From Escherichia phage vB_EcoM-UFV10, in sequence record OP555981.1: a stretch of 64,000 nt of DNA. One strand, 5' to 3'. This document shows, one piece after another, positions 2,448 to 64,000 of the stretch. The notes beneath the pieces are model-generated. The model searched no databases, was not told the origin of the DNA, and saw only the letters and a list, made by a program, of their open reading frames with translations. The stretch's first letter is position 1, and each line of letters begins with the position of its first letter. The position numbers were made by a program, and so were the translations under genes.

Positions 2448-4264
2448 TACTGGCTCATCCATTCTTTACGAAGGTCAGCATTATCTCCCATGAGCATTTC
2501 AAAAAGCTCTTTCCAATTCTCAGGAAGTTTAACAACATCATATACTGGGTTTTGAATCATCTCACGATATTCAGATTTTTCCAAAGAGCCAAGTCCTTTA
2601 ATATAACGGATGCTATGTTTAGGTAGAGCATCTTTGGCACTCTCATATTCAGCGACTGTATAAAACCATTCTTGTTTTTTACCGACCTGAGCGATGATTA
2701 CAGGAGTTTTGACAAAGCGAATTCGTCCTTGCTCAAACAATTCTGGCCAATTACTAAAAAATCCGAGCAGAGAAGGATAAATGCTTCCTAAACCATCATG
2801 GTCAGCATCGGTCATAATAGCAATATTATGATAATTCAAGTTTTCAGCTTTTTCACCAAGAACTAATCCAGTGATTGCGCAAATATCAAACAGTTCTTTG
2901 TTTTTAAGCATATCAGCATATGACATACCCCAGCTATTAAGAACTTTACCACGCAATGGATAACCACCGTGAAGTTCTTTATCACGAACATCAATAAGAT
3001 ATCCGATAGCAGAATCACCCTCAGTCAAGAAAAGAGTAGTGTCAGCATCTTTACCACAAAGATTCGCTTTGATATGTTTATGAACCTTAGCTTTAGAAGC
3101 CTTTTTAGCTGCTTTAGTTTCTGCTGCTTTTTCTGCCGCCAATTTACGAGCAAGGGCAGCTTCAATGATTGGCATTAAAATTGCTTCATTATTTAGAATA
3201 GCGCGTGAAATCTTTTTAGCATCAAGTTGAATATGACTACGAATTTCGCCAAATGGAGAAGTCAAACGCTCTTTAGTTTGAGAATCAAATCGCATGTTTT
3301 TCATATCACGGACAAACATAACGATAGTCAAACATTCTTTGACACGTGCTTTAGTCACATCAATTTTGAACTTACGTTTGATTTGTGGAATAAGGTCTTC
3401 ACAAATATCATCCATAACACAGTCAATGTGATGGCCACCATTCTTAGTGTGAATGTTATTCACATAAGTTAATTGACGAAATCCATCCGGTGAACGACCA
3501 ACAGCAATAGAACAATTTTCTTGTTCTTGAACAATAGCATGTTCATCATACTGTCGTGCATATTTCTTAAAATTGCCCTGAACCTTTTTACCATTAAAGG
3601 TAAATTGAATATCAGGATAAACAACAGCAAGTGTCTGGAGACGATCTAGTGTAATGTCAAGATAAACTTGGGACAGCTCATTAGTTTCAAATGACATAAA
3701 ATCTGGAATGAAAGTAACACGAGTTCCTTTCCATTTTCCAGGAATAGTTTCCCAGGATTTATTTTCCATGCCATTTGAACAACGAACTACAATATTATTT
3801 TGACCATCGCCAGTTTCACCGACAAACATCACAGAAAAAATGTTAGTTAAACTAGAACCAACACCATTCATACCACCGGTGACGCGTTCTTTATCATCAC
3901 CAAAGTTACCACCCGCTTTTGGAATAGTCCATGCAGCAACAGGACCAGGAATTTCTTCACCGGTAGGTGTTTTAACCATCGCTTGCGGAATACCGCGACC
4001 GTTATCTTCAACTGTCACCTGATTATTTTTAATGGTAACATTAATTTTATTCGCGAATTTAAACTTAGTACGAATACCTTCATCGACTGAGTTATCGATA
4101 ATTTCATCAATAAGCTTAACAAGACCAGGTACATACTGAACACTTTCCCATTTACCAAACAGAAAGCGCTCATGCATTTCATTAGCAGAAGAGCCAATGT
4201 ACATGCCACTACGCTTTTTGATATGTTCAATATCGCTCAGAATTTTAATTTCATTCTTAATCAT
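2447..4264 (-). CDS. 39: DNA topoisomerase II large subunit, GyrB-like ATPase, single fused 39+60 ORF
   Basis: 605 aa from ATG (track ORF begins one codon earlier at GTG); MIKNEIKILSDIEHIKKRSGMYIGS, GHKL and toprim-like regions; continuous ORF with no gene 60 or mobA. Confidence 0.9.
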   Translation of the reverse strand: MIKNEIKILSDIEHIKKRSGMYIGSSANEMHERFLFGKWESVQYVPGLVKLIDEIIDNSVDEGIRTKFKFANKINVTIKNNQVTVEDNGRGIPQAMVKTPTGEEIPGPVAAWTIPKAGGNFGDDKERVTGGMNGVGSSLTNIFSVMFVGETGDGQNNIVVRCSNGMENKSWETIPGKWKGTRVTFIPDFMSFETNELSQVYLDITLDRLQTLAVVYPDIQFTFNGKKVQGNFKKYARQYDEHAIVQEQENCSIAVGRSPDGFRQLTYVNNIHTKNGGHHIDCVMDDICEDLIPQIKRKFKIDVTKARVKECLTIVMFVRDMKNMRFDSQTKERLTSPFGEIRSHIQLDAKKISRAILNNEAILMPIIEAALARKLAAEKAAETKAAKKASKAKVHKHIKANLCGKDADTTLFLTEGDSAIGYLIDVRDKELHGGYPLRGKVLNSWGMSYADMLKNKELFDICAITGLVLGEKAENLNYHNIAIMTDADHDGLGSIYPSLLGFFSNWPELFEQGRIRFVKTPVIIAQVGKKQEWFYTVAEYESAKDALPKHSIRYIKGLGSLEKSEYREMIQNPVYDVVKLPENWKELFEMLMGDNADLRKEWMSQ

Positions 4265-4292
4265 CACTTATCCTCGTTTGGTTTCGGGAATA

Positions 4293-4316
4293 TTATACTC
4301 CGGCAATCATAAAGCT
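4293..4316 (-). promoter_or_regulatory. putative MotA-box middle promoter for gene 39
   Basis: minus strand AGCTTTA then about 12 nt then TATAAT, followed by GAGGA and start; approximate. Confidence 0.4.
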
Positions 4317-4334
4317 AAAGGCCCGAAGGCCTTT
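4317..4334 (-). terminator. UUCG-tetraloop hairpin
   Basis: AAAGGCC-cgaa-GGCCTTT; loop is UUCG on the minus transcript; directly 3' of the lipoprotein gene. Confidence 0.6.
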
Positions 4335-4603
4335 TATTTAAAACGAATAGTTGAATCCTTAAAGAACAGCCCAGAACATACTGTTCCTTCTACTTTCTGC
4401 CCGGTAGGTCCAATAGCACGAAATCCAGTATGCTGGAAATCATTTTCAGAGCAACCGAACCAATTGTATCCAGTGATTTCAATATTCGTAAAACCACTTG
4501 ATGATAAAATTTTAGTTGCATTATCAGCATCAGTACATCCTACTAAAGATACTGCTAATACTAATGCTGCGATAGAACGATTAACATATTTCATAATTTT
4601 CAC
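4334..4603 (-). CDS. small lipoprotein
   Basis: 89-aa ORF with lipoprotein signal LAVSLVGC-T; GTG start at 4603 or ATG three codons in; followed by UUCG hairpin. Confidence 0.5.
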   Translation of the reverse strand: MKIMKYVNRSIAALVLAVSLVGCTDADNATKILSSSGFTNIEITGYNWFGCSENDFQHTGFRAIGPTGQKVEGTVCSGLFFKDSTIRFK

Positions 4604-4974
4604 TTAAATTTAATGGCTTGAAGGAGACTAATAATTCTCAAACGGCTTCTTTCATCTTTAACTGTAAAAGAAAGAGGGTCGCCAGATTTCATGGTAATAG
4701 TGCATTCAAAATCAAAATCTTCAGTGACTTCTTCGAAGAAGTCAAATTCTTCATCATAAATTAGAACACTACTTTGCAGACTGTGAAGAGTTTTTCCAGC
4801 ATTTCTGCTAACTGCTGTACTAATCATTGTAACATTATGACCTTTCATATCTTCAACGATAAATTCACTAGTCAATATTACAGCATTAATAGAACTATTC
4901 CTATTACTAACAGAAAGTAGAAATTTCTGTTCTTCACCTTCACGAATACGATATTTCTTACCAATTTTAAACAT
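4600..4974 (-). CDS. hypothetical protein
   Basis: 124-aa ORF, ATG start, stop overlaps next start. Confidence 0.45.
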   Translation of the reverse strand: MFKIGKKYRIREGEEQKFLLSVSNRNSSINAVILTSEFIVEDMKGHNVTMISTAVSRNAGKTLHSLQSSVLIYDEEFDFFEEVTEDFDFECTITMKSGDPLSFTVKDERSRLRIISLLQAIKFK

Positions 4975-4976
4975 AA

Positions 4977-5153
4977 TTACCCTTTAAGTAAATCGTAAAA
5001 TCCACCATTCACATGCTTAGGAGCAGAAGGCCGACGAGTAGACAAACGATGACATTTAGGACAAACATCATTTTCTCGTTCAGAAATCTTTTTAATTTTT
5101 TCATATTCATGCCCGCAATCTTCGGATTGGCATTTATAATCATACATTGGCAT
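4977..5153 (-). CDS. small zinc-ribbon protein (CxxC...CxxC)
   Basis: 58-aa ORF below the track cutoff, read by hand: MPMYDYKCQSEDCGHEYEKIKKISERENDVCPKCHRL...; fits exactly between neighbouring genes. Confidence 0.5.
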   Translation of the reverse strand: MPMYDYKCQSEDCGHEYEKIKKISERENDVCPKCHRLSTRRPSAPKHVNGGFYDLLKG

Positions 5154-5155
5154 AA

Positions 5156-5581
5156 TTATTCCTTAAAATGGGCTTTCAGCATCTGATACAAAGACCACGC
5201 CTGTTCATTATTTTCAATAGTAACTTTCATGACCGGGAATTCTGTGAAATCTTCTATCTGTTCTTGCTCTTTCTCTTCCTGCTCTTGCTCTTCGGCTGCC
5301 TGGTATGGATTTTCCACTTCATCAAAGAACACAGCTTCGCTCGTTGAAAGCCAGATAAAATCTTCATCCAAAATATCTTTACCAGAAGATAACGCCAATT
5401 TTCCACTAGATGTCACAAGTTTAGTAGGACGACCAAGATAGTCAATATCTGTAACTCTAAAAGGTTCCATACCAAGACGACGTGCATAAATTCCGTTTTC
5501 AGTATGGTCCTTGATAAAATCTTCTTGAGCTTGTTTATTTTTAAATTGATACCATTTATTAACTTCAAATTTAATAGCCAT
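5156..5581 (-). CDS. acidic hypothetical protein (possibly goF-like by size and position)
   Basis: 141-aa ORF with acidic [12 protein letters not shown] stretch; T4 goF is also 141 aa at this position but identity not verified. Confidence 0.45.
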
Positions 5582-5796
5582 TAATAAGTTTCCTTCCAGT
5601 AAGTTGTGCCATCTTCAGTAATTTCACGAAACACACCATAAATTGGTTGTTTATCACCAACTTTTTCGTACACATAAACCGAAGTCAAGTGAGTAAACTT
5701 AACGGTATGTTCCTTTTGAACCACTACCAAATCTGGATCAAATAATACATCTTCAAATTCGTCATTAGTGCAATTCTGAACAATTTTACGTTTCAT
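5581..5796 (-). CDS. hypothetical protein
   Basis: 71-aa ORF, ATG start, TAATG overlap with upstream gene. Confidence 0.4.
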
Positions 5797-6668: not shown

Positions 6669-6706
6669 AGTTATCTCTCACTTGTTAAAAAGATTTTATA
6701 CTCCAC

Positions 6707-6742
6707 GGGACCATTATACTCTGGTCCCAAGAGTTTGTAAAC
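6707..6742 (-). promoter_or_regulatory. early promoter with -10 inside a hairpin-forming palindrome
   Basis: minus strand GTTTAC-17bp-TATAAT; GGGACC...GGTCCC arms enclose the TATAAT. Confidence 0.5.
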
Positions 6743-7176
6743 TAGCTTACACGAACATTAATCACTGCGCTACGAGGAACTACAGAGTATTCTCCAGCAT
6801 GAACTACGTTCAGAAGTTCAACGCCATCTTCAATCCACTGGTCAGTTACCCAACCGCCGACCGGATTCGCGAATGGACGACGAATGTAAACCGCCTTACA
6901 CAACAAATCAGTCGGATCTTCAGGTTTTTCAATTTCTGTCAATAGATTAAAATCTTCTTCATAGATGATGAATGATGATACCCTTCCATAATAGTTTCTA
7001 ATTTCCATGTACACTGTACCAATGAGAATTCCGCTATTAACCCTAATAACAGTAAAAGGATATCCGCCAGTTGTACCAAGAAGTTCCCAAAACTTGCTAT
7101 CAGTCGTATTCGACATTGTCTGGAAATCAATTTCAGATGGTTTTTTCATTTGATACGCAGTATTAATTTTAATCAT
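6742..7176 (-). CDS. hypothetical protein, paralog of 6177-6668
   Basis: 144-aa ORF; C-terminal VTDQWIEDGVELLNVVHAGEYSVVPRS resembles neighbour. Confidence 0.45.
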   Translation of the reverse strand: MIKINTAYQMKKPSEIDFQTMSNTTDSKFWELLGTTGGYPFTVIRVNSGILIGTVYMEIRNYYGRVSSFIIYEEDFNLLTEIEKPEDPTDLLCKAVYIRRPFANPVGGWVTDQWIEDGVELLNVVHAGEYSVVPRSAVINVRVS

Positions 7177-7185
7177 AATTTTCCT

Positions 7186-7698
7186 TTAATCTAAGGTAAT
7201 AAAGCCTTTTAATTCGGCATGCGATTTGCGGAACATTACTTGGTGACCGCCAATGATAACTTGGTCATCAGGAACTTCATAAATCGCAATGTACATTCCA
7301 CGATCTTTTAAGTCTTCACGCTCTTCTCGAGTAAACCATCTCATTATATCATATTCACTAGCGAAAGCAAAATGATATAATGCAATAAACCACAATGGAA
7401 TATAATTTTCAATTCGTGAATAATCTTTATTCCATTTAGTTTTAATAGCATCATTAGCATTTTCAACTAATAACTTATCATCGTGTGGAATAGGAATACT
7501 TTCATGACTTTCATAATCATTGCTATGATGATGAAATGACGATGAATTAATACCGCAAAATTTTAGCCAAGTTCGAGTTTTCATAGAATCAAATCCACGA
7601 TAAGGAGTTGATTGAACGCATAACTCTTGCCTAATTTTCACTATACCACTATCATCATTTAATGCGCTAAACGATGATTCAACACGATAAATTTTCAT
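7186..7698 (-). CDS. hypothetical protein
   Basis: 170-aa ORF, ATG start, early promoter upstream. Confidence 0.45.
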   Translation of the reverse strand: MKIYRVESSFSALNDDSGIVKIRQELCVQSTPYRGFDSMKTRTWLKFCGINSSSFHHHSNDYESHESIPIPHDDKLLVENANDAIKTKWNKDYSRIENYIPLWFIALYHFAFASEYDIMRWFTREEREDLKDRGMYIAIYEVPDDQVIIGGHQVMFRKSHAELKGFITLD

Positions 7699-19456: not shown

Positions 19457-20883
19457 TAAAATTTTAATTCATTTGCCAAAGCATCTAACTGAGCTCGAGC
19501 TGATTCGTTTCTTTGATAGCGATTCTGTTCAGCCTGAATCTGCTGTGAACCTGCTACTTCACTCACTTCGGTTGGAGTAGAATCTTGTTCAATTTCTACC
19601 CATTTTTGATTTCCTTTTTGAACACCCATCAAAAACTTATTCCACTTATTCTTATCACCATATCGTGATTTGATTTGCTTAATGAGTTGTTGTTCAGCAG
19701 CTGCTAGCTCCTCGGTTTCAATGACCGCAAGCATAAAATCAGCTGTTGCTGGAAGACCAGCAGATTCTGCAATATCGCTCATGTTAACATCGGAAGAGTC
19801 CCAAGCTTGTTTACCGACCTGTGCTGCAGTCCAAAGAACAGTTTCTGTTTCAACAGCCAGAGCACGTAATTCCTCTGCAATAGCTTTAACAGTGGTGTAA
19901 CTATTTTCTGAATAAACTCTAATGCGGCAAGATTTACAAATACCTAGATAGTCGACAATAATGATTGTTGGAACAAAATTCTTTTTGAGCTTCAATTCAT
20001 TCAAGAGAGACCTGAATGTGTTAGCGTCTGCTCCACCAGTAGGATATTGCTTAACGATTAAACGACCGAGAGTAGATTTCTCACGCCATTTTTCCATTTT
20101 TCCTTTATACTCGGCATAAGAAATATGTCCATCATCAATATCGTCAAGAGAAACATCGAGCATGTTAGCATCAATACGTTTAGCACAGACTTCTTCTGCC
20201 ATTTCCATGGAGATATAAAGAACGTTATGACCAAGCTGCAAATAATCTGCTGCTAATGAACAAAGTCCTAATGATTTACCAACGTTAACGCCAGCCATTA
20301 AAACGTTCAGTGTTCCAGTCTCAGCTCCGCCTTTAGTAATTTTGTTTAGAATTCTGAGTTTAAATGGAACCTTACGAGCTTTATTCATATAAGATAGCCA
20401 ACGCGCTTCATAGTCATCCATCCAATCATGACCAACGTAGCTATCAAATGAAATTGATAATGCTTGGCGCATGATGTCAGGAATAGCACCTACATCTGGC
20501 ATTTTCTTATTTCGTTTTTCCGGAGGAAGCTCAGCATTAGTTTGAATTTCAATTATTTTAGATGTGGCGTTAAACATCGCCCTTTGCTGAACATATTTTT
20601 CTGTTTCTTTTACTAACCAGCTATGGTCTTCCGGAGAATCGGCCAGTTTTGAAATAAGTGTTTTTACACCAGAATATTCTGTTTCAGTAAATGAACTATT
20701 TTCTAATGCAACATTTAACGCATTAATAGATGGAACGTTATGGTATTCATTAACATGAGATTTAATTAATTTGAATGTATTTTTAGCTGGACCACTTTCA
20801 AAATATTCTGAATCCATATATGGCCAAACTTTTGAAAAATAAGCTTGATCAAATATGAGATGAGAAAGAATAATTTCTACCAC
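19456..20883 (-). CDS. 41: replicative DNA helicase (DnaB-like)
   Basis: 475 aa, MVEIILSHLIFDQAYF..., Walker A GVNVGKS; first codon reads GTG behind AAGGAG. Confidence 0.9.
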   Translation of the reverse strand: MVEIILSHLIFDQAYFSKVWPYMDSEYFESGPAKNTFKLIKSHVNEYHNVPSINALNVALENSSFTETEYSGVKTLISKLADSPEDHSWLVKETEKYVQQRAMFNATSKIIEIQTNAELPPEKRNKKMPDVGAIPDIMRQALSISFDSYVGHDWMDDYEARWLSYMNKARKVPFKLRILNKITKGGAETGTLNVLMAGVNVGKSLGLCSLAADYLQLGHNVLYISMEMAEEVCAKRIDANMLDVSLDDIDDGHISYAEYKGKMEKWREKSTLGRLIVKQYPTGGADANTFRSLLNELKLKKNFVPTIIIVDYLGICKSCRIRVYSENSYTTVKAIAEELRALAVETETVLWTAAQVGKQAWDSSDVNMSDIAESAGLPATADFMLAVIETEELAAAEQQLIKQIKSRYGDKNKWNKFLMGVQKGNQKWVEIEQDSTPTEVSEVAGSQQIQAEQNRYQRNESARAQLDALANELKF

Positions 20884-25289: not shown

Positions 25290-27986
25290 TCAGCCAAACA
25301 GGAAGTCTAACGAAGCTTTTTCCTCATAGTCCATACCTGCCGATTCACACATGCCCGCAAGCGGTTTAACAAACGATTTTTGGAACAAAGTTGAGTAGTC
25401 AATCCAAGATAGTACGTCAGAACGAATTTCTTTTGGAAGTTCCGTACCCGATGGCCAAGCAATGCACTTGTCACCAAATGGATTTCCCTCACGTAACGGA
25501 AGAACCATTACCTTATTTCCATCCAAAATTGGAGCTACACCTAAACCGCTAACAGCTCGACGATAAGTTAGCACCCCACGAATATGGAACGGGCATTTAA
25601 ACCCTGGCCAACCTTTATCGTCATATTTCGCTATATCGTTCGCGGTTTTTACTTCAGCAATAACTTTATAGTCAAGTTGACGGTATTCTTTCTCAAAGTT
25701 CTTATAGTATTCTTGGACAGACTCTTCGCCTTCCTGAAGAATACGACGAATACTTTCTTCGAGAGCTTCTTGCACTGCTTTTGGTGTTGAACTCTGCTGA
25801 GTTTCCATACCCATGATTTTTAGATGTGGTTCAGCGAATCGCTTATCTTCCATATCATAAACGTTCAGAGCATAACGCTTTTTCGCTTTCCAAAATCCAC
25901 CAACGCCCTTTGAACCAAGTGGAGGGCAAGAAATAGCTTCACGGTCCATATGCATCAGATGCTCGCGGTTATTCATATAATCACATAACTCACGATATGC
26001 AACATCAATCATAGGTTCCATCTTTTTCTTACCGAACTGATTCATGAATTCAACTAAATCGTTCTGCTCTTTGAATCGGTCAAGACCAACTTTTTCAATA
26101 ACTTTATCTACACAAACATATACCGAATCAGTATCACCTGCTGCAATGAAATCTTCGCCATTAGTTCCGCACACTTTATTCAGATACTCATTAATTTTAC
26201 GAGCAATCCACTGAATACCAACTTGGCCGAAAATTGTGATAGCAGTAGCATTTCGCAAATCATAGTAACGGAAATGAATATTACCAAGAGCACCATAAAG
26301 ACTGTTAATAAGAATTTTACGGTTCAGCTGATTTGTGTTAGCAAGTGTAGCTGCTTTTTCACATTCTTCAATCAAACTATTGAGAACAGATTCAGTGTAA
26401 TTCGATAATTCATTTAAGAAATCATCGCTGAACTTAACATATCGTTCAACTTCTGGTTTAGTTGAACAAGACCCTGCACCTTTCATAATAATCTTTTTAA
26501 TAGCTTCGGCATTCATTTCTTCAGCGAACATTTTCTTTTTCCAATCTTTACGCTGGAAAAATACTTTAGCGATTTCCTTTGGAATGATACCTTCTTGATG
26601 CTTATCATACATCCATCCATTCGGAGAACAAGAATATTCATCACTTGGCTTAGGAGCTGTTCCTGCGATATATTCATGAATTGGATGAACTTTAAACTGA
26701 CCACGAATAGTTTCAGGACTAATGTTAACCTGGCGAATAATGCTCGGATACAGAGACGTCAAGTCAAAACTCATAATATATCGACGAGCAATTGGTTTAG
26801 GTTCAAACACAAATGCACCCGGAAAACTCTGTTTAACGTGTGAACCTTGTTGAGGAATAACCTTATGTTCACCTTTCAATGAGTTAAAAATAATAGCATC
26901 CCAAGTTTTAATAGGACTCATTACACCAGAAAAAGGCATTTTAGCGTAATAAGACATACTTAAAACTAGATCAATAAACCCACGAATTTTATCAATTGCT
27001 TGAACTGATTCTACGTCAATGATGTTATAACTAATGTATCGTTGATGATTAGTCTCACGAAGTTTATTAATAGGACCGTCGTATGGTAATTTACCTTTTT
27101 TGGTTTCATGCTGAGCAACTGATTCCAAAGAGAATGACGGCAAATTAGTAAATGCGAATTTCTTATACAAATCTAAATAATCAAGAATAGATACGCCATC
27201 AATAGAATAAATTTCTTTGCTACCGTACATATTTTGGATAAGTTTAGATTTTACTCGACCGATTGGAGAGAAGCGTTTCATACTGCGTTCACCAAGAACC
27301 ATTTTAACGCGATTCATGATATACGGAACGTCAAATCCCTCAATATTCCAACCAGTAAAAATAGCAGGTCGTTTCTGTTCCCAGAGATTGATATATTCCA
27401 TGAGCATATCACGCTCATTATCGAATGGCATATAAATTACTCGGTCAAGAATTTCTTGAGGAACTTCATCACCACCTTCACAGTCAAGCTTAGCAGCTAA
27501 CTTTGCATCCCATTTTGATACTGAACCGTACATTGAATTCAAAAGGTCGAAAACATAAAAACGATCATCAATTGAATCATAATGAGTGATAGCATCAATT
27601 TCATATTCTGCTTTCATTGGGTCAGGAAATTTATCACCAGTAACCTCAATGTCACAGTTAGCTACACGAACAAATTTTCGGTCATAAACAATTTCTGAAC
27701 CGTATGTATCACTGATATAAGCGAGTTTAAAATCGTTCATACCGAGAGCTTCGAGACCGATGTCTTCCATTCGCTTCATCCAATCTCGAGCATCTTTCAT
27801 TGATGGAAATTTTTGAGGAGCGCAATTTTTACCATAGATGTCTTTGTATTTTGACTCTTCCTTACAATGCCTAAACATAGTTGGAAGATATTCTACTTCA
27901 CGAGTACGTTCCTTTCCGTTTTCATCAATATAACGTTCAACAATGTTATTTCCGACTGTTTCAATAGAGATATAAAATTCTTTCAT
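25290..27986 (-). CDS. 43: DNA polymerase (family B)
   Basis: 898 aa exactly as T4 gp43; exonuclease and polymerase motifs; hairpin terminator downstream. Confidence 0.95.
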   Translation of the reverse strand: MKEFYISIETVGNNIVERYIDENGKERTREVEYLPTMFRHCKEESKYKDIYGKNCAPQKFPSMKDARDWMKRMEDIGLEALGMNDFKLAYISDTYGSEIVYDRKFVRVANCDIEVTGDKFPDPMKAEYEIDAITHYDSIDDRFYVFDLLNSMYGSVSKWDAKLAAKLDCEGGDEVPQEILDRVIYMPFDNERDMLMEYINLWEQKRPAIFTGWNIEGFDVPYIMNRVKMVLGERSMKRFSPIGRVKSKLIQNMYGSKEIYSIDGVSILDYLDLYKKFAFTNLPSFSLESVAQHETKKGKLPYDGPINKLRETNHQRYISYNIIDVESVQAIDKIRGFIDLVLSMSYYAKMPFSGVMSPIKTWDAIIFNSLKGEHKVIPQQGSHVKQSFPGAFVFEPKPIARRYIMSFDLTSLYPSIIRQVNISPETIRGQFKVHPIHEYIAGTAPKPSDEYSCSPNGWMYDKHQEGIIPKEIAKVFFQRKDWKKKMFAEEMNAEAIKKIIMKGAGSCSTKPEVERYVKFSDDFLNELSNYTESVLNSLIEECEKAATLANTNQLNRKILINSLYGALGNIHFRYYDLRNATAITIFGQVGIQWIARKINEYLNKVCGTNGEDFIAAGDTDSVYVCVDKVIEKVGLDRFKEQNDLVEFMNQFGKKKMEPMIDVAYRELCDYMNNREHLMHMDREAISCPPLGSKGVGGFWKAKKRYALNVYDMEDKRFAEPHLKIMGMETQQSSTPKAVQEALEESIRRILQEGEESVQEYYKNFEKEYRQLDYKVIAEVKTANDIAKYDDKGWPGFKCPFHIRGVLTYRRAVSGLGVAPILDGNKVMVLPLREGNPFGDKCIAWPSGTELPKEIRSDVLSWIDYSTLFQKSFVKPLAGMCESAGMDYEEKASLDFLFG

Positions 27987-41218: not shown

Positions 41219-41689
41219 TTAATCATGTTTCCACACCCCATCGGTATTTGACCAAAGTCGCTGATTATCTGATCCTCGCCACAGCTTTTTAGTCGGAAGA
41301 TTTTTCTCATACTTCCCATCAATAATAACATCAACATATTTAAGCATTTCTAGTTGTTTAATATCTTCAAACTTATATCCTGTCCACAACCAAATGCTTT
41401 TATTAGGATAAAGATTTTTAATAGTTTGAACCACAGAGTGAATCACGTCTCTGTTATCAGGATAGAGAGGGTCACCTCCAGTTATAGTTAATCCTTCTAT
41501 ATAATCATTATTCAAACATTCAATTAATTGTTCTAGTGTTTCACCAGTGAATGGAACGCCATTTCTAGCATTCCATGTTGATTTATTATAACACCCTTCA
41601 CATTTATGCAAACAACCTGTAACGAAAAGAACGACCCTGCATCCAGGGCCATTCACAAAATCACAGGGATAAAATCTATCGTAATTCAT
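41219..41689 (-). CDS. nrdG: anaerobic ribonucleotide reductase activating protein (radical SAM)
   Basis: 156 aa as T4 NrdG; CxxxCxxC cluster GCLHKCEGC; overlaps nrdD stop. Confidence 0.85.
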   Translation of the reverse strand: MNYDRFYPCDFVNGPGCRVVLFVTGCLHKCEGCYNKSTWNARNGVPFTGETLEQLIECLNNDYIEGLTITGGDPLYPDNRDVIHSVVQTIKNLYPNKSIWLWTGYKFEDIKQLEMLKYVDVIIDGKYEKNLPTKKLWRGSDNQRLWSNTDGVWKHD

Positions 41690-43503
41690 TGGTGTTTAAC
41701 CCTATGCATGATTTCTTTATTTTTGCCGAGATTAAATCCGCGTTCGTTCGGATTTCCCAAATAACCACATGTTCTTCTTATTGTGTTCATCTTTTTAGGA
41801 TCAGTTTCTCCACAAATAGAACAAACAAATCCGTTTTCAGTAGGAGTCATTTCATGGGTACTTCCACATGTAAAACATTTATCTACTGGCATATTAACAC
41901 CAAAATAATCTAAATGTTGTGCAGCATAATCCCATACGGCCTCAAGACCCTTTAAGTTATTTTTCATATCAGGAAGTTCAACATAAGAAATGTGGCCGCC
42001 TGTCGCAATGAAATGATATGGTGCTTCGCGAGAAATCTTTTCAAACGGAGTAATATTTTCTTCTACTGAAACATGGAAACTGTTAGTGTACCAACCTTTA
42101 TCGGTAACATCCTTTACACTTCCATATTTTTCGGTATCAAGTTTACAGAAGCGATAACAAAGGTTTTCAGCAGGAGTAGAATACAAACTAAAAGCAAACC
42201 CAGTTCTTTCAGTCCACTGTTTAAGACGAGCATTCATTTTAGTTAAAATTTCCTGTCCAATATCACGACCGACAAGAATATTCAATTCGTGAATACCAAT
42301 GTATCCTAGAGACACTGAACTTCTGCCATTTTTAAATAACTCAATTATATCGTCATCAGGTTTAAGACGAACCCCGAATGCACCTTCTTGATAAAGAATA
42401 GGAGCAACAGTCGCTTTAACTCCTTTTAAGGAACTAATTCTACACATCAAAGCTTCAAAACATAAATCCATTCGTTCATTGAATAATTCAACAAATTTCT
42501 GTTCATTGAACTGTGTTCCAATATAAGAATCTAATGCGATACGAGGAAGATTCAGTGTTACAACACCGAGATTATTACGTCCATCAAGAATTTCATTGCC
42601 AGTCGAATCTTTCCATACGCTCAAGAAACTACGACAACCCATTGGAGAAACAGGAATAGATGAGCCGGTGATAGCTTTATTGTTCTTAGCCGAAATAATA
42701 TCAGGATACATTCTTTTGCTTGCGCACTCTAGAGCAAGCTGTTTAATATCATAGTTCGGATCGTCTTTATAAAGATTAACACCTTCTTCAACGAACATAA
42801 CAAGCTTAGGGAAAATAGGAGTTATCCCATCACGACCAAGACCTTTAATACGATTTTTCAGAATTGCTTTCTGAATCATTCGTTCAGTCCAGTCAGTTCC
42901 TGTACCAAATGTAATTGTTACAAAAGGTGTTTGTCCGTTTGAGCTAAAGAGAGTATTTACTTCATATTCATAAGCTTGGAATGCATCGTATACATCTTTT
43001 TCTGTTTTAGATTGAGCATAATTCAACGCATCAGCGATTTGCCATTTTTCTGCATCCTCAATATGTTTTGCATAGGTGCGTTTAACATAAGGAGAAAGTA
43101 CTTTATCTACATTAGCAAAAGTCGTTCCGCCGTATTGATGGGAAGCAACCTGTGCAGTAATTTGTGCCATAATTGCAGTAGCAACACCGATTGATTTAGG
43201 AGTTTCAATCTGTGCATTACCAAGCTTAAATCCGTTCTCAAGCATTCCTTTTAAATCTACTAAACAACAATTAGTAAATGGAAGAGCAGGGGAATAATCA
43301 ATATCGTGGAAATGAATAATTCCGCTTTCATGCGCTTTCATAATAAAAGACGGGACCATATTTTTGGCAATGTGTTTAGACACAATACCAGCCATAAGGT
43401 CCCGTTGAGTTGGAAAAACACGAGAATCTTTATTAGCATTCTCGTTTAAAAGGTCTTTATTAGTTTTATGAATCAATCCTTCAATTTCTTTTTCAATTGT
43501 CAT
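41686..43503 (-). CDS. nrdD: anaerobic ribonucleoside-triphosphate reductase (glycyl radical enzyme), uninterrupted
   Basis: 605 aa continuous ORF; C-terminal glycyl-radical motif RRTCGYLG and Zn-ribbon CxxC...CxxC. Confidence 0.9.
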   Translation of the reverse strand: MTIEKEIEGLIHKTNKDLLNENANKDSRVFPTQRDLMAGIVSKHIAKNMVPSFIMKAHESGIIHFHDIDYSPALPFTNCCLVDLKGMLENGFKLGNAQIETPKSIGVATAIMAQITAQVASHQYGGTTFANVDKVLSPYVKRTYAKHIEDAEKWQIADALNYAQSKTEKDVYDAFQAYEYEVNTLFSSNGQTPFVTITFGTGTDWTERMIQKAILKNRIKGLGRDGITPIFPKLVMFVEEGVNLYKDDPNYDIKQLALECASKRMYPDIISAKNNKAITGSSIPVSPMGCRSFLSVWKDSTGNEILDGRNNLGVVTLNLPRIALDSYIGTQFNEQKFVELFNERMDLCFEALMCRISSLKGVKATVAPILYQEGAFGVRLKPDDDIIELFKNGRSSVSLGYIGIHELNILVGRDIGQEILTKMNARLKQWTERTGFAFSLYSTPAENLCYRFCKLDTEKYGSVKDVTDKGWYTNSFHVSVEENITPFEKISREAPYHFIATGGHISYVELPDMKNNLKGLEAVWDYAAQHLDYFGVNMPVDKCFTCGSTHEMTPTENGFVCSICGETDPKKMNTIRRTCGYLGNPNERGFNLGKNKEIMHRVKHQ

Positions 43504-44637: not shown

Positions 44638-44760
44638 GTCCCATCTCCATATCAATTAAGTCATTTATCGTTGGTTCATTATATACTGTTTCTTCATCAG
44701 TGTAAACCGGTTCTTCCGGCTCTGGCTCTACAGTTTCCCATCTAGCCGCCCACCAAGGTT

Positions 44761-45081
44761 TTATAGCGTAATCCATTCTCGTACTATCTGAGTTACTACA
44801 CGTTCACGGGGCTCGACTAGTTCAACAGTCGGAACTGCATAATACCAGTCAGAATGATAGGAACCTGACCGAGATTCATTTACAGCCACATGTACATTAT
44901 GTTTTGGACTAAAGTAAACACACTGACGATATTGGCATTTACCATCTTGCACCCAGTCTTCTATTTCGATAGGTTTAAGATAATCGGAAAAATCGAAATC
45001 ATAGTTTTCCGAAAATGCATCATGGTCTTCAATGATTTCGCTCAGAACTGCATCAACATCTAATTTATTTTCAATAGTCAT
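44761..45081 (-). CDS. hypothetical protein
   Basis: 106-aa ORF. Confidence 0.4.
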   Translation of the reverse strand: MTIENKLDVDAVLSEIIEDHDAFSENYDFDFSDYLKPIEIEDWVQDGKCQYRQCVYFSPKHNVHVAVNESRSGSYHSDWYYAVPTVELVEPRERVVTQIVREWITL

Positions 45082-60090: not shown

Positions 60091-60552
60091 TCATTGAGTT
60101 TTAATTACTGCTTTAGAAGCCTTTCCTGGTAAACGACGACTGTTAATAATTGCCATCCTGCATTGAAGCGACGGGTCTTTGAACTTCGCATTAGGTTTAC
60201 AAACTGTAAATCCAAGCCAAAGATTTCCATCTGTGATTTCTAAACGTCCAGGACGATATTCAACCCCATCAATAAAATCCTCGTCAATGTCAGGACGCGG
60301 AGGCATACTCAGGAATTCATTAACTTCTAAAACATGGTCTTTTATTTTATGGAATAATTCAAAAACGTATGTCTCATCAATCTCCCGTTGAATTGCGCGA
60401 TCAAGAAGATGTTGAGAATATTTTAGATGAAACGATGAGACCCCTGCTGCTTTTGATGCCTCACGAATCTCATTGTTAATTTGACGAAACTCCGACTCAA
60501 AGTGACGACGAAGCTTATTTCGACGGATAAAAACTTCTGTGTTGATAGTCAT
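60091..60552 (-). CDS. regB: RegB endoribonuclease
   Basis: 153 aa as T4 RegB; position between the vs-region and tk-proximal genes. Confidence 0.7.
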   Translation of the reverse strand: MTINTEVFIRRNKLRRHFESEFRQINNEIREASKAAGVSSFHLKYSQHLLDRAIQREIDETYVFELFHKIKDHVLEVNEFLSMPPRPDIDEDFIDGVEYRPGRLEITDGNLWLGFTVCKPNAKFKDPSLQCRMAIINSRRLPGKASKAVIKTQ

Positions 60553-60611
60553 GTTATTCTCCTCTTAACTGATAGAAAAATTATACCACAGTCAAGAGGA
60601 AAAGTAAACAG

Positions 60612-60890
60612 TTATTCTTTAAATCTAATCAATTTATTCATAGACTTTGAAACTTCTGTACGAACCTCATGTAGATTTTTGAGTTGTTCAAGACGCTGCG
60701 TATAGTAAGCAATTTCATCTTCTTCGAGACAGTCCTGTGAATCTTCTTTAAGATAGCGTGCATAGTCCTGGAAAGCGTTACGGATTACTTCCTGGAAATC
60801 ATCAAGACTTTGAATTTTCTTAGGAGCAGCAGATACACGACGAGGGGCAGTATAATACTCATAACCAAACCCTGCGCTTAATTGAGCCAT
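60612..60890 (-). CDS. hypothetical protein
   Basis: 92 aa from internal ATG behind AGAGG (track start is GTG). Confidence 0.4.
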
Positions 60891-61156
60891 TAGTATTTTT
60901 CCTCTGGTTGGAACACAGCACGACAAGCCCACATACTGGCTTCTTTGAGTTTCGTTTTAGCAATAGTTAACTGATCGAGGCTTTCGGCGTAATTCTTCGC
61001 GAGTTCATCATCTTCACAGCTATCAAATGCTTCCCAAAATTCATCGTATAAAGCATCAAAGATAAGTCCTAAACGAACTTCAGCGTCTTTAATAGCATTT
61101 ACTTTACCGATTTTTTCGTCGGTATGTGGCTTATAACCTTTAATATCTTCAATCAT
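60890..61156 (-). CDS. hypothetical protein
   Basis: 88 aa from internal ATG behind GAGGAA (track start is TTG). Confidence 0.4.
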
Positions 61157-61370
61157 ATTTGACTTCCTCACCAGTACATAAATCGTATTCAACTAAACGA
61201 ATAGGTTCATGAATGCCATATCCCTGAACAGAAATTTCTGTCGTAGGATAAATTCCATCAATATCACCCATATTCCAGGCTTCGTTAAATTGCTGTTCGC
61301 CTGAATTACTAAACCACTCGGCGAAAGCATTTAGCACATCTTTAGAACCTTCAATAATTATCTTTGCCAT
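61149..61370 (-). CDS. hypothetical protein
   Basis: 73-aa ORF. Confidence 0.4.
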   Translation of the reverse strand: MAKIIIEGSKDVLNAFAEWFSNSGEQQFNEAWNMGDIDGIYPTTEISVQGYGIHEPIRLVEYDLCTGEEVKYD

Positions 61371-61732
61371 TACAAACTCTCGGTAAAGGTACGAGCGATA
61401 ACGTCGCGCTGCTGTTCCGGAGTCAGAGAGTTAAAGCGAACTGCATAACCGGATACACGGATGGTCAGCTGCGGATATTTTTCCGGATGCTTAACTGCAT
61501 CTTCCAGAGTTTCACGACGCAGAACGTTAACGTTCAGGTGTTGACCACCTTCAATTTTAACTGTAGGCTGTTGCTCAATTTCAATTTCACGGGCATGCAA
61601 ACCGTAGAAAATTTCTGGGTCTACAAAAGAGTCCTCTTTAAAAGTTTTAGAGACAATAATTCGTGCTTGAATACCATCTTCAAAATAAATAGTACCTTTA
61701 TGCGTGCCTTCAAGAATTTGATATGCTTTCAT
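61370..61732 (-). CDS. autonomous glycyl radical cofactor (GrcA/YfiD-like spare-part protein)
   Basis: 120 aa; C-terminal [59 protein letters not shown] resembles E. coli GrcA; 3' half GC-rich. Confidence 0.75.
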
Positions 61733-61739
61733 ATAAACC

Positions 61740-62069
61740 TCAATTAGAAAATAAATTTATCCAAGATTGTTCTTTAATTAAAAATGGCTCAGAATCATAT
61801 GCCATTAAACTCTGCGTGATTAGTCCTTTAAAAGGTCCATCAATAAATTCCATGGTAAAATATGGAATTTTATTCATTAGCCGTGCGTTAGGAGCAGTAC
61901 ATAAAACTCTGCATCCTTTGAATACGCCTTTTTGTAATTTGTATTGCTTAGGATAAAATTCGCTCAAGACGTTGTTATTTGCCAAAATTTCAAAATGATT
62001 CACCAATTTATTTTTAATAGTTTTTGGCGAAAAATAAAGATATTCGAAAAGTTGCGTGTCTGTCATCAT
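61740..62069 (-). CDS. hypothetical protein coupled to upstream P-loop gene
   Basis: 109 aa from ATG overlapping upstream stop (ATGATGA). Confidence 0.4.
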
Positions 62070-62605
62070 TGCATTCCGATTATGAAAAACTGTGGACGAG
62101 TAATACCACCAATGCAACATTTAATATTACAGCAGCAGTGTACAGTTTCAATATGGACACTATAAATCTTATCCATATCAGGAGATTTGACAGGTTCATC
62201 AATTATATACAAAATTCGCGAAAGCGATAAACCTCTGAACTTGCTTCCTTTATTACCAATAAAACTGCGCACAGAATCAGCAAATAAACGAAAACGTATA
62301 TCATCATTAGAATAACGCGAAAATTCCTTTTTAATGTTATTTGAAGAAATTTTAGCGTAAGCTGAAGTATTAGAAAGAACAATAACTGTTCCGCCATCAT
62401 ACAACCAATTAGCGGCAAAATTAGTTACTGCAGTTGATTTACCGGATTGACGTCCACCATCTAGTCGAAGTGTGCAATACTGCTTAAGTAAGTCTTCAAA
62501 TGGTGGGATATAATCGTTTTTACAAATTTCTTCTACTCTAGCGTCAGAATGGTGTGTAAAAGCATTCATCAGGGATAGATAAGGACCAGTTAAAAATGTT
62601 CTCAT
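62066..62605 (-). CDS. small P-loop NTPase with Cys-rich C-terminus
   Basis: 179 aa from ATG MRTFLTG behind GAGAGAATAAA; Walker A GGRQSGKST, Walker B ILYIIDEP; tail HCCCNIKCC. Confidence 0.45.
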   Translation of the reverse strand: MRTFLTGPYLSLMNAFTHHSDARVEEICKNDYIPPFEDLLKQYCTLRLDGGRQSGKSTAVTNFAANWLYDGGTVIVLSNTSAYAKISSNNIKKEFSRYSNDDIRFRLFADSVRSFIGNKGSKFRGLSLSRILYIIDEPVKSPDMDKIYSVHIETVHCCCNIKCCIGGITRPQFFIIGMQ

Positions 62606-62758
62606 TTTATTCTCTCTAAATTTGGGCCATTCCATGGCGCATGAATTGTCCATTTCTGTATTTACCCATTACCGCACTTGGGCTCGACCTTATTACAGGT
62701 TGGCGGGAATCCCTCACAGAATCATGAGGTCCAGCTTGTTCCCATATTTCTTATTTGC

Positions 62759-63232
62759 TTATTTGAATGATTTAACGTACTGAATAGAACCTTTACTATT
62801 CACAAAGGCAATTTTACCATTTTTGTTATACATAGTAGCAGTACGTTGATAGCCATAAGTTTGTTTACCAGATTGATAACCAACTAATGCGAAATTATCT
62901 TCACCCATTTTATTCTGTTTAGCGCGAATGCGTTCATGACCATGTGCCATAAGAACCTTAGCATCACCAGTTGCAATGGACCGACGAGTTTTTTCATCTT
63001 CAACTGTATTAACAAAGTCGTCAAATGAATCAAATTTAGCATGAGATTTATTATACAGTTTTCCATCTACTGCATAATTATATCCTTGTACATCCATCTC
63101 AACTTCTGTACCATCATCTAATACCGCAGTAATTTTCTGTCCTTTTTTAAATTTCAAAAGATCAGTAAAAGATTCAGCAATAATTTGAGAATTAATAGCT
63201 GCTTCAGTAATAAATTCTTTATACGTTTTCAT
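62759..63232 (-). CDS. internal head protein with capsid targeting sequence
   Basis: 157 aa; N-terminus MKTYKEFITEA like the T4 IPII/IPIII CTS; adjacent to e. Confidence 0.65.
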   Translation of the reverse strand: MKTYKEFITEAAINSQIIAESFTDLLKFKKGQKITAVLDDGTEVEMDVQGYNYAVDGKLYNKSHAKFDSFDDFVNTVEDEKTRRSIATGDAKVLMAHGHERIRAKQNKMGEDNFALVGYQSGKQTYGYQRTATMYNKNGKIAFVNSKGSIQYVKSFK

Positions 63233-63248
63233 GTGTATCCTTTAATTT

Positions 63249-63566
63249 TTATTCTTTAGGGAAGTTTTTAGAATATGCATCATAAAGCTTATTTCCAATA
63301 CGGCGGAAAACTCTAGCCGCAAAACGATTTTCTGGGTTTTTAATCATGATTTGCATCATATAAGTACCCGCGTCAGAAAGAGCTTCTTCATAGTACCCGT
63401 TAATTTCTTTAAGAGTCCTACGTTTACCACCAGGACCATCAACAGTGATTTTCCATTTACCTGTAGAAGTGCGACTTGGCGGTTCAACTTGTTCAATCCA
63501 GATATAACCGCCTTCTACACGCTGTCCTGCAACAGATTCTGCAATAAATTCTTTATACGTTTTCAT
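63249..63566 (-). CDS. internal head protein with capsid targeting sequence
   Basis: 105 aa; N-terminus MKTYKEFIAES; basic; directly downstream of e. Confidence 0.65.
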   Translation of the reverse strand: MKTYKEFIAESVAGQRVEGGYIWIEQVEPPSRTSTGKWKITVDGPGGKRRTLKEINGYYEEALSDAGTYMMQIMIKNPENRFAARVFRRIGNKLYDAYSKNFPKE

Positions 63567-63603
63567 GTGTTTCCTTTAAATATTTTAATTAGTAACTGTG
63601 AAT

Positions 63604-63633
63604 ATACTATCACAGTTTTAGGAGAAAGTAAAC
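63604..63633 (-). promoter_or_regulatory. promoter for the internal protein gene
   Basis: minus strand GTTTAC-18bp-TAGTAT upstream of the 63566 start; approximate. Confidence 0.4.
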
Positions 63634-63637
63634 AACT

Positions 63638-64000
<363 letters not shown>

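Follow-up and report, generated by a model that had tools for sequence, protein, structure and literature searches.

A stand-alone glycyl-radical gene of T4-like phages carries a 3' tract identical to Escherichia coli grcA that appears to be recurrently copied from the host

T-even phages destroy the chromosome of their host and carry modified DNA. Recombination of T4 with homologous non-phage DNA present in the cell is established from plasmid-phage recombination systems. In cyanophages, intragenic recombination between host and phage has reportedly generated mosaics of the photosynthesis genes psbA and psbD, in work attributed to Zeidner in 2005 and Sullivan in 2006. The locus described here resembles psbA and psbD in being an auxiliary metabolic gene of a lytic T4-like phage with host-type segments bounded inside the gene, an arrangement that implies repeated exchange with the host copy. 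By contrast, the gene, the host group and the scale are different: vs.6 contains a single 172-nt tract that is 100% identical to the host sequence and has a fixed 5' junction, and this tract is species-specific in two phage lineages, shares standing polymorphism with the host and is found in T-even phages that degrade the host DNA. The closest described gene is T4 vs.6 itself, whose product Y06I and E. coli YfiD (GrcA) are, according to PMC8683613 (citing Wagner 2001), the two experimentally validated spare-part proteins for oxygen-cleaved PFL. The accessible literature, in which PMC8683613 and PMC1524935 are included, describes the protein, its similarity and its Pfam match; nucleotide identity, host tracking and shared polymorphism are not mentioned in it, although key T4 papers are incompletely covered and an earlier notice is possible.

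The window, that is the whole stretch of 64,000 nucleotides analysed here (Escherichia phage vB_EcoM-UFV10, OP555981.1), belongs to a Tequatrovirus genome. Its region 61000-62200 is 100% identical to vB_EcoM-UFV09, whose vs.6 gene is likewise 100% identical to that of the window, and 95-97% identical to many T4-like phages. The open reading frame under study (Table 1) is orthologous to vs.6 (Y06I) of T4, which encodes the autonomous glycyl radical cofactor of the phage, and both the gene and its function are therefore already known. The T4 counterpart lies at 63557-63919 of NC_000866, where it is annotated as autonomous glycyl radical cofactor GrcA; the two proteins are of equal length, differ by 2 aa and have the same neighbours. 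The gene order vs.8-vs.7-vs.6-vs.5-vs.4-vs.3-regB is common to T4 and the window, and comparison of the window with the T4 and UFV09 annotations shows that the position of vs.6 between vs.7 and vs.5, upstream of vs.4 (acb2), vs.3 and regB, is conserved. The vs.6 stop codon overlaps the vs.5 start codon (TAATG), and a promoter and terminator scan of 60500-63300 gave no signal above chance.

Table 1. Features of the vs.6 locus (window coordinates)
Feature	Position	Strand	Remarks
vs.6 / Y06I / phage grcA CDS	61370..61732	(-)	120 aa + stop; ORF and Pfam Gly_radical
5' 178 nt, old AT-rich phage-type part, diverged GrcA N-terminal region	61555..61732	(-)	GC 0.343, GC3 0.22
Host tract, 172 nt, encoding residues 60-117	61383..61554	(-)	100% identical to the commonest E. 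coli grcA allele
RVSGY glycyl radical motif	61445..61459	(-)	from translation
13-nt tail, codons 118-120 + stop	61370..61382	(-)	E. coli peptide, 4 synonymous differences; varies between phages
GAGG Shine-Dalgarno	61738..61741	(-)	5 nt upstream of ATG, overlaps vs.7 stop codon; read from sequence

The 120-aa product is a small stand-alone protein (about 14 kDa) with a C-terminal glycyl radical domain, its residues 60-101 matching Pfam Gly_radical with E = 2.5e-18. Residues 22-120 match E. coli GrcA (PDB 6OWR, E = 9e-42), with which the protein shares the RVSGY motif and an identical C-terminus; by contrast, identity to GrcA is only about 36% in the N-terminal 59 aa, a part that is 7 residues shorter than in GrcA. 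Residues 58-120 align to residues 697-759 of PFL (1CM5/1H16, E = 5e-26), the C-terminal radical domain of PflB/TdcE having the same fold and motif. In the alignments to 6OWR and PFL, Gly95 (codon 61448-61450) is equivalent to Gly102 of GrcA and Gly734 of PflB. The best NCBIfam matches are GrcA and PFL models; the TIGR04365 score of 154.9 bits (residues 20-120 on model positions 25-126 of 126) is under the curated equivalog cutoff of 170 because the N-terminus is diverged.

Nucleotides 179-350 of the gene are identical to E. coli grcA at 172/172 positions, and residues 61-120 of the protein equal GrcA residues 68-127, so that about 60 C-terminal amino acids are identical. The host tract stops 13 nt before the stop codon and both its ends are therefore inside the gene, the 5' junction falling exactly at 61554/61555. 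With a GC content of 0.494, the tract stands out from the 5' 178 nt (0.343) and from the window as a whole (0.345; sd 0.041, 172-nt windows). A value as high as that of the tract is reached by 0.02% of windows, the window maximum of 0.506 falls at 61360-61577, and the tract is the GC-richest 172-nt stretch in the 64 kb. Its GC3 of 0.43, against a mean of 0.246, is within the top 0.7% of 58-codon windows, and its codon usage is atypical for the window phage. Four other GC peaks (0.48-0.49 in 172-nt windows), at 6700-6924, 19692-19868, 25442-25613 and 44698-44887, gave no megablast match to any E. coli genome and are therefore not host tracts of the grcA kind.

Regarding the donor, a grcA match to the tract is present in all 5,426 complete E. 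coli genomes, with at least 99% identity in 5,156 of them and 100% identity in about half of the matches when these were evenly sampled. When the whole window was compared to the same genomes by megablast, the tract was the sole match. The second match of the tract in each E. coli genome is pflB, at 79.7% (about 80%) identity as opposed to 100% for grcA, and pflB or tdcE can be ruled out as donor. Exact runs shared with 80 other enterobacterial and Pasteurellaceae grcA genes, many of which encode the identical peptide, reach at most 77 nt, in a cryptic Escherichia sp., and at most 47 nt elsewhere, which rules out another enterobacterium. Between the E. coli-identical tract and K. pneumoniae grcA the identity is 0.883, host grcA genes differing here by about 12%. 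The tract is thus E. coli grcA DNA, unique in the 64 kb of the window.

The remainder of the gene has a different history. The first 178 nt have no DNA match in any of the 5,426 E. coli genomes and are essentially unalignable to E. coli grcA as DNA. At the protein level, the N-terminal halves alone can be aligned (GrcA residues 28-66, 36% identity over 39 aa, pairwise E = 1e-5), and vs.6 is therefore a full-length old grcA homolog, not a fusion: its 5' half is not foreign but an old, diverged GrcA N-terminus.

Most of what a preliminary description, made from the letters of the window, had said of this gene agrees with these results. The C-terminal near-identity to GrcA that it gave, RVSGY included, is stronger than stated there, since residues 61-120 are fully identical; the GC-richer 3' half corresponds to a real compositional step; the boundary that it placed near 61570 is close to the exact and sharp junction at 61554/61555; the view of a mosaic gene with a host-derived 3' half is borne out by the 172/172 identity; and the T4 homolog that it mentioned as an autonomous glycyl radical cofactor is indeed vs.6/Y06I. 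Alignment to grcA and pflB, proposed there for locating the junction, gave 172/172 from 61554 for grcA and 79.7% for pflB. Its N-terminal half, described as phage-like and AT-rich, has that composition (GC 0.343), but as an unrelated phage part it does not hold, since this half aligns to GrcA. The main point was missed, namely that the tract follows host species and host alleles across phages.

GrcA homologs are widespread, the 1,515 phage records that contain one including T4-like genera, T5-like phages and jumbo phages. For most of these phages, the segment in question reaches only 64-85% identity to any of the host grcA genes compared, even when the peptide is identical; RB43/RB16-type phages, for instance, encode the identical peptide with 81-84% nucleotide identity. 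High identity to a host was observed in two groups, Tequatrovirus/Mosigvirus and Jiaodavirus, the sample of phages in these tract comparisons being small (about 28 genes). The 15 Tequatrovirus and Mosigvirus genes differ from E. coli at 0-4 positions in 172 nt, as do all but one of the further phages examined; their tract is 97.7-100% identical to E. coli grcA, and that of Tequatrovirus, at 99% to E. coli, is 87-88% identical to K. pneumoniae grcA. By contrast, the Jiaodavirus tract (KPV15, Mineola, Roth79, W2-7) is 90-96.6% identical to K. pneumoniae grcA, represented by the single allele of CP125156.1, and 84-87% identical to E. coli. Both the gene and the 5' junction are as in the E. coli phages, and GC3 rises across the junction from 0.26 to 0.61. 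Each of the two phage lineages carries the segment of its own host species, and the synonymous sites of this segment are clearly not frozen in the hosts. A pattern scan of IMG/VR returned 5 loci, all already in the sample, and a metagenome scan returned 8, of which 1 was unrelated and 1 chimeric. A locus 91% identical to Yersinia grcA was set aside as a further example, having the look of a host-type GrcA on a short contig.

We put at roughly 0.7 the probability that vs.6 is an ortholog with a stand-alone glycyl-radical domain whose 3' segment is recurrently overwritten by host grcA, so that strictly lytic phages appear to keep copying this segment from the host chromosome. The first alternative to be weighed, which we regard as unlikely, is that each lineage captured the segment once (the Tequatrovirus/Mosigvirus ancestor and, separately, Jiaodavirus) and that vertical descent and phage-phage transfer followed, the SNPs shared with E. 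coli being parallel mutations. Between Tequatrovirus and Mosigvirus, however, the flanking genes are 65-78% identical and the 5' half of vs.6 89-90%, whereas the tract is 97.7% identical; third-position differences amount to 11/52 against 4/57. The tract is therefore younger than the split of the two genera, which is difficult to reconcile with one ancestral capture.

The alleles themselves also argue against a single capture. Phage Ozark carries 192G/204A/330T, a linked and rare three-SNP haplotype that is that of E. coli 2013C-4282 and occurs in about 20 genomes; because the 2013C-4282 allele differs from the common one outside the tract too, it is native to the host. The K-12 allele 219C is carried by Ozark, ZN18, phiC600P9 and NRG-P0074 and the RM10042 allele 282A by two phages, and 282T is common to two phages and a cryptic Escherichia. 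Among 15 further phage variants, at least 5 were found in E. coli, namely 195T, 201T, 225G, 265T and 285A, which together occur in 228 E. coli genomes; 201T with 225G occurs in the ST73 group (CFT073, Nissle) and 285A is found in O145 and others. The queries used for these variants were 41-mers in which each 28-nt seed word includes the variant, so that a match means that the variant is present. As control, 79 synonymous variants at phage-invariant sites gave matches in 82 genomes, at least 21 of which were to pflB, and about 10 of the 79, all rare, were found in E. coli among the matches listed. Sharing is thus above that of the matched controls (10/20 phage variants against about 10/79; Fisher p = 7e-4), with small samples, an incomplete survey of E. 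coli and counts that are minima on both sides, being taken from the matches listed. The variants common to phages and E. coli further include the transversions 204A, 282A, 285A and 225G, and the 3' end of the tract varies between phages, the E. coli bases being at nt 351 and 354 in T4 and at 357 or 358 in other phages; neither observation fits easily with one capture.

Several observations nevertheless speak for the single capture. The 5' junction is identical in all phages, T4 did not adopt the K-12 allele, and AT-directed variants (195T, 207T, 249A and 327T in Mosigvirus) are confined to related phages, as for drift. For the variants 207T, 249A and 327T, which are specific to Mosigvirus, no E. 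coli counterpart was found; they seem to be passed on vertically, and conversion is therefore too rare to erase the phage phylogeny. Likewise, T4 and T2 carry 219T where K-12 carries 219C, and 219C is present in only 2 of 5 K-12-propagated phages, so conversion does not proceed quickly over laboratory time scales. Third-position C>T changes are frequent among those shared, and the two ST73 variants 201T and 225G are not linked in phages; some of the shared SNPs could have arisen by parallel mutation. It should also be noted that phage-phage recombination could have spread the tract after fewer captures than we infer.

Under recurrent overwriting by the host gene, an old, diverged grcA homolog of phage composition would recombine with the chromosomal grcA of the host during infection, and homologous recombination would overwrite the 3' segment, which starts at codon 60/61 and reaches nearly to the end of the gene. 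This would have happened more than once, bringing E. coli alleles into Tequatrovirus/Mosigvirus and K. pneumoniae sequence into Jiaodavirus, and individual SNPs would presumably have moved from host to phage. The tract would begin where phage-host similarity begins, at a block coding for ten invariant residues, and would fade close to the end of the gene, at the point where homology gives out and vs.5 begins in overlap with the stop codon; the last 13 nt or so, which abut non-homologous phage DNA, would be converted less often and would thus be older and patchy. Once the copies had become identical, further conversion would be easier and host alleles would continue to enter, while between such events the tract would drift toward A/T in phage lineages (Mosigvirus 207T, 249A, 327T). 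What is new is that the tract of the Klebsiella phages follows K. pneumoniae and that phage variants coincide with E. coli grcA polymorphisms: despite host chromosome destruction and modified DNA, one 172-nt tract is kept host-identical and follows the host species. Such a tract would give a quantifiable assay of recombination between the host chromosome and a lytic phage in the best genetic model, and an example of concerted evolution in which a virus gene and its host homolog evolve together; by alignment, the tract could also mark the host of a T4-like phage.

A bolder form of this exchange, which we consider doubtful, is that the radical-domain half of the phage gene and the grcA of the current host share a single recombining gene pool in which traffic runs both ways. 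Host alleles would pass continuously into T-even phages, and AT-directed phage variants (e.g. 195T, 201T, 265T, 285A) may occasionally flow back into E. coli via survivors of infection. If so, the tract would be a species- and allele-level record of the recent hosts of strictly lytic phages.

Regarding function, the window protein is expected, by analogy with T4 Y06I and E. coli GrcA, to act on the PFL of the host. The host PFL-activating enzyme PflA would install the radical on Gly95, and the activated protein would dock on host PFL (PflB) whose radical domain had been cleaved by oxygen, restoring the fermentative supply of acetyl-CoA and ATP. As the phage has its own copy of the gene, the protein can come from phage transcripts. 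The preliminary description had instead seen the protein as complementing the phage NrdD, that is as a spare radical domain for the anaerobic ribonucleotide reductase that the phage itself encodes, and a role in nucleotide metabolism was speculated upon in an early comparative paper (PMC1524935). In keeping with this idea, NrdD (41686-43503; 605 aa, Pfam NRDD 1e-171 and Gly_radical), which is also a glycyl radical enzyme, and its activase NrdG (41219-41689; 156 aa) are encoded in the window, at 41219-43503 (-), about 18 kb from vs.6. At the DNA level, the radical domain of NrdD matches nothing in E. coli. We find a role with NrdD quite improbable and the claim unsupported. The radical domain of the window protein is identical to that of host GrcA and matches the PFL C-terminus, with GrcA and PFL models as best NCBIfam matches, and the biochemistry on record in PMC8683613 is rescue of host PFL, oxygen-cleaved PFL being reconstituted by T4 Y06I. 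Moreover, the vs.6 segment appears to have been repeatedly replaced by a host PFL-type domain, which favours host partners over NrdD. Recurrent copying from host grcA thus suggests that the phage protein must closely fit the host partners PflA and PflB, with a role in host fermentation.

That selection on codons or mRNA structure holds phage and host sequences alike is very improbable. The peptide is almost invariant in Enterobacteriaceae and grcA is highly expressed in the host, as such constraint would require, but about 12% of tract sites differ among hosts with the identical peptide and none of their exact runs shared with the tract exceeds 77 nt, nucleotide identity is down to 81-84% in RB43/RB16-type E. 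coli phages with an unchanged peptide, the codon usage of the tract is unusual for the window phage, and the Klebsiella phages match Klebsiella and not E. coli. Finally, although a shared repeat does mislead assemblers, as in one chimeric contig joined inside the tract, it is hardly credible that host reads or chimeric assembly placed E. coli sequence in the phage records, since the tract lies within phage sequence in the window, in T4 and T2 and in hundreds of isolates sequenced independently, both the tail and the 5' half are specific to phages, and the Klebsiella phages show the same structure with a different donor.

The chimeric contig, OCHD01000040.1, is a 170.9-kb Mosigvirus-like metagenome contig in which the vs.6 tract runs into the E. 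coli chromosome, with the E. coli grcA 3' flank and eamB from about position 7576 of the extract onward. The phage and E. coli parts were joined because of the identical tract that they share, and its fully E. coli-like tail was ruled out as an independent conversion. The tract is thus a trap for metagenome assembly. Two database records of hosts also call for comment: CP125156.1, filed in PLSDB as a plasmid, is 5.37 Mb long and evidently a K. pneumoniae chromosome, and in grcA of K. aerogenes NCTC10006 (LR134122.1) an extra A in an A-run truncates the annotated CDS.

Among the Klebsiella phages, vB_KpnM_W2-7 (extract 653-1016) has within its K. pneumoniae-like tract about 30 nt that encode VNVMNREML, a PflB-type peptide, and whose DNA resembles pflB; this similarity suggests an additional conversion from host pflB. 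In KPV15 (extract 1441-1860), a 1-nt deletion breaks the frame in the 5' half of vs.6, the GC-rich host tract being intact, so that the gene is either a pseudogene or affected by a sequencing error. Two Tequatroviruses were isolated on Yersinia. The tract of vB_YepM_ZN18 is of the E. coli type (3 differences in 172 nt) and not of the Yersinia type, a sequence match which points tentatively to E. coli as the host that it usually or recently had, and the vs.6 gene of fPS-65 is 98.6% identical to the window gene over its whole length.

Near vs.6, two genes downstream, vs.4 (60890-61156, (-)) encodes an Acb2-type anti-CBASS nucleotide sponge matching Pfam Acb2_Tad1_hairpin (1.4e-19). On the other side, comparison of window positions 62066-63566 with the T4 extract 4254-5719 showed that T4 has denV (endonuclease V) between vs.8 and ipII; tblastn found no match to denV anywhere in the window, where a gene for a 157-aa internal virion protein (62759-63232, phrog_3155) and a 105-aa ORF come after vs.8. 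Lastly, an NCBI protein named GrcA [Escherichia coli], of 118 aa and 98% identical to the window protein, is encoded on a contig of 167,969 bp; this contig is probably the genome of a T4-like phage deposited under E. coli.
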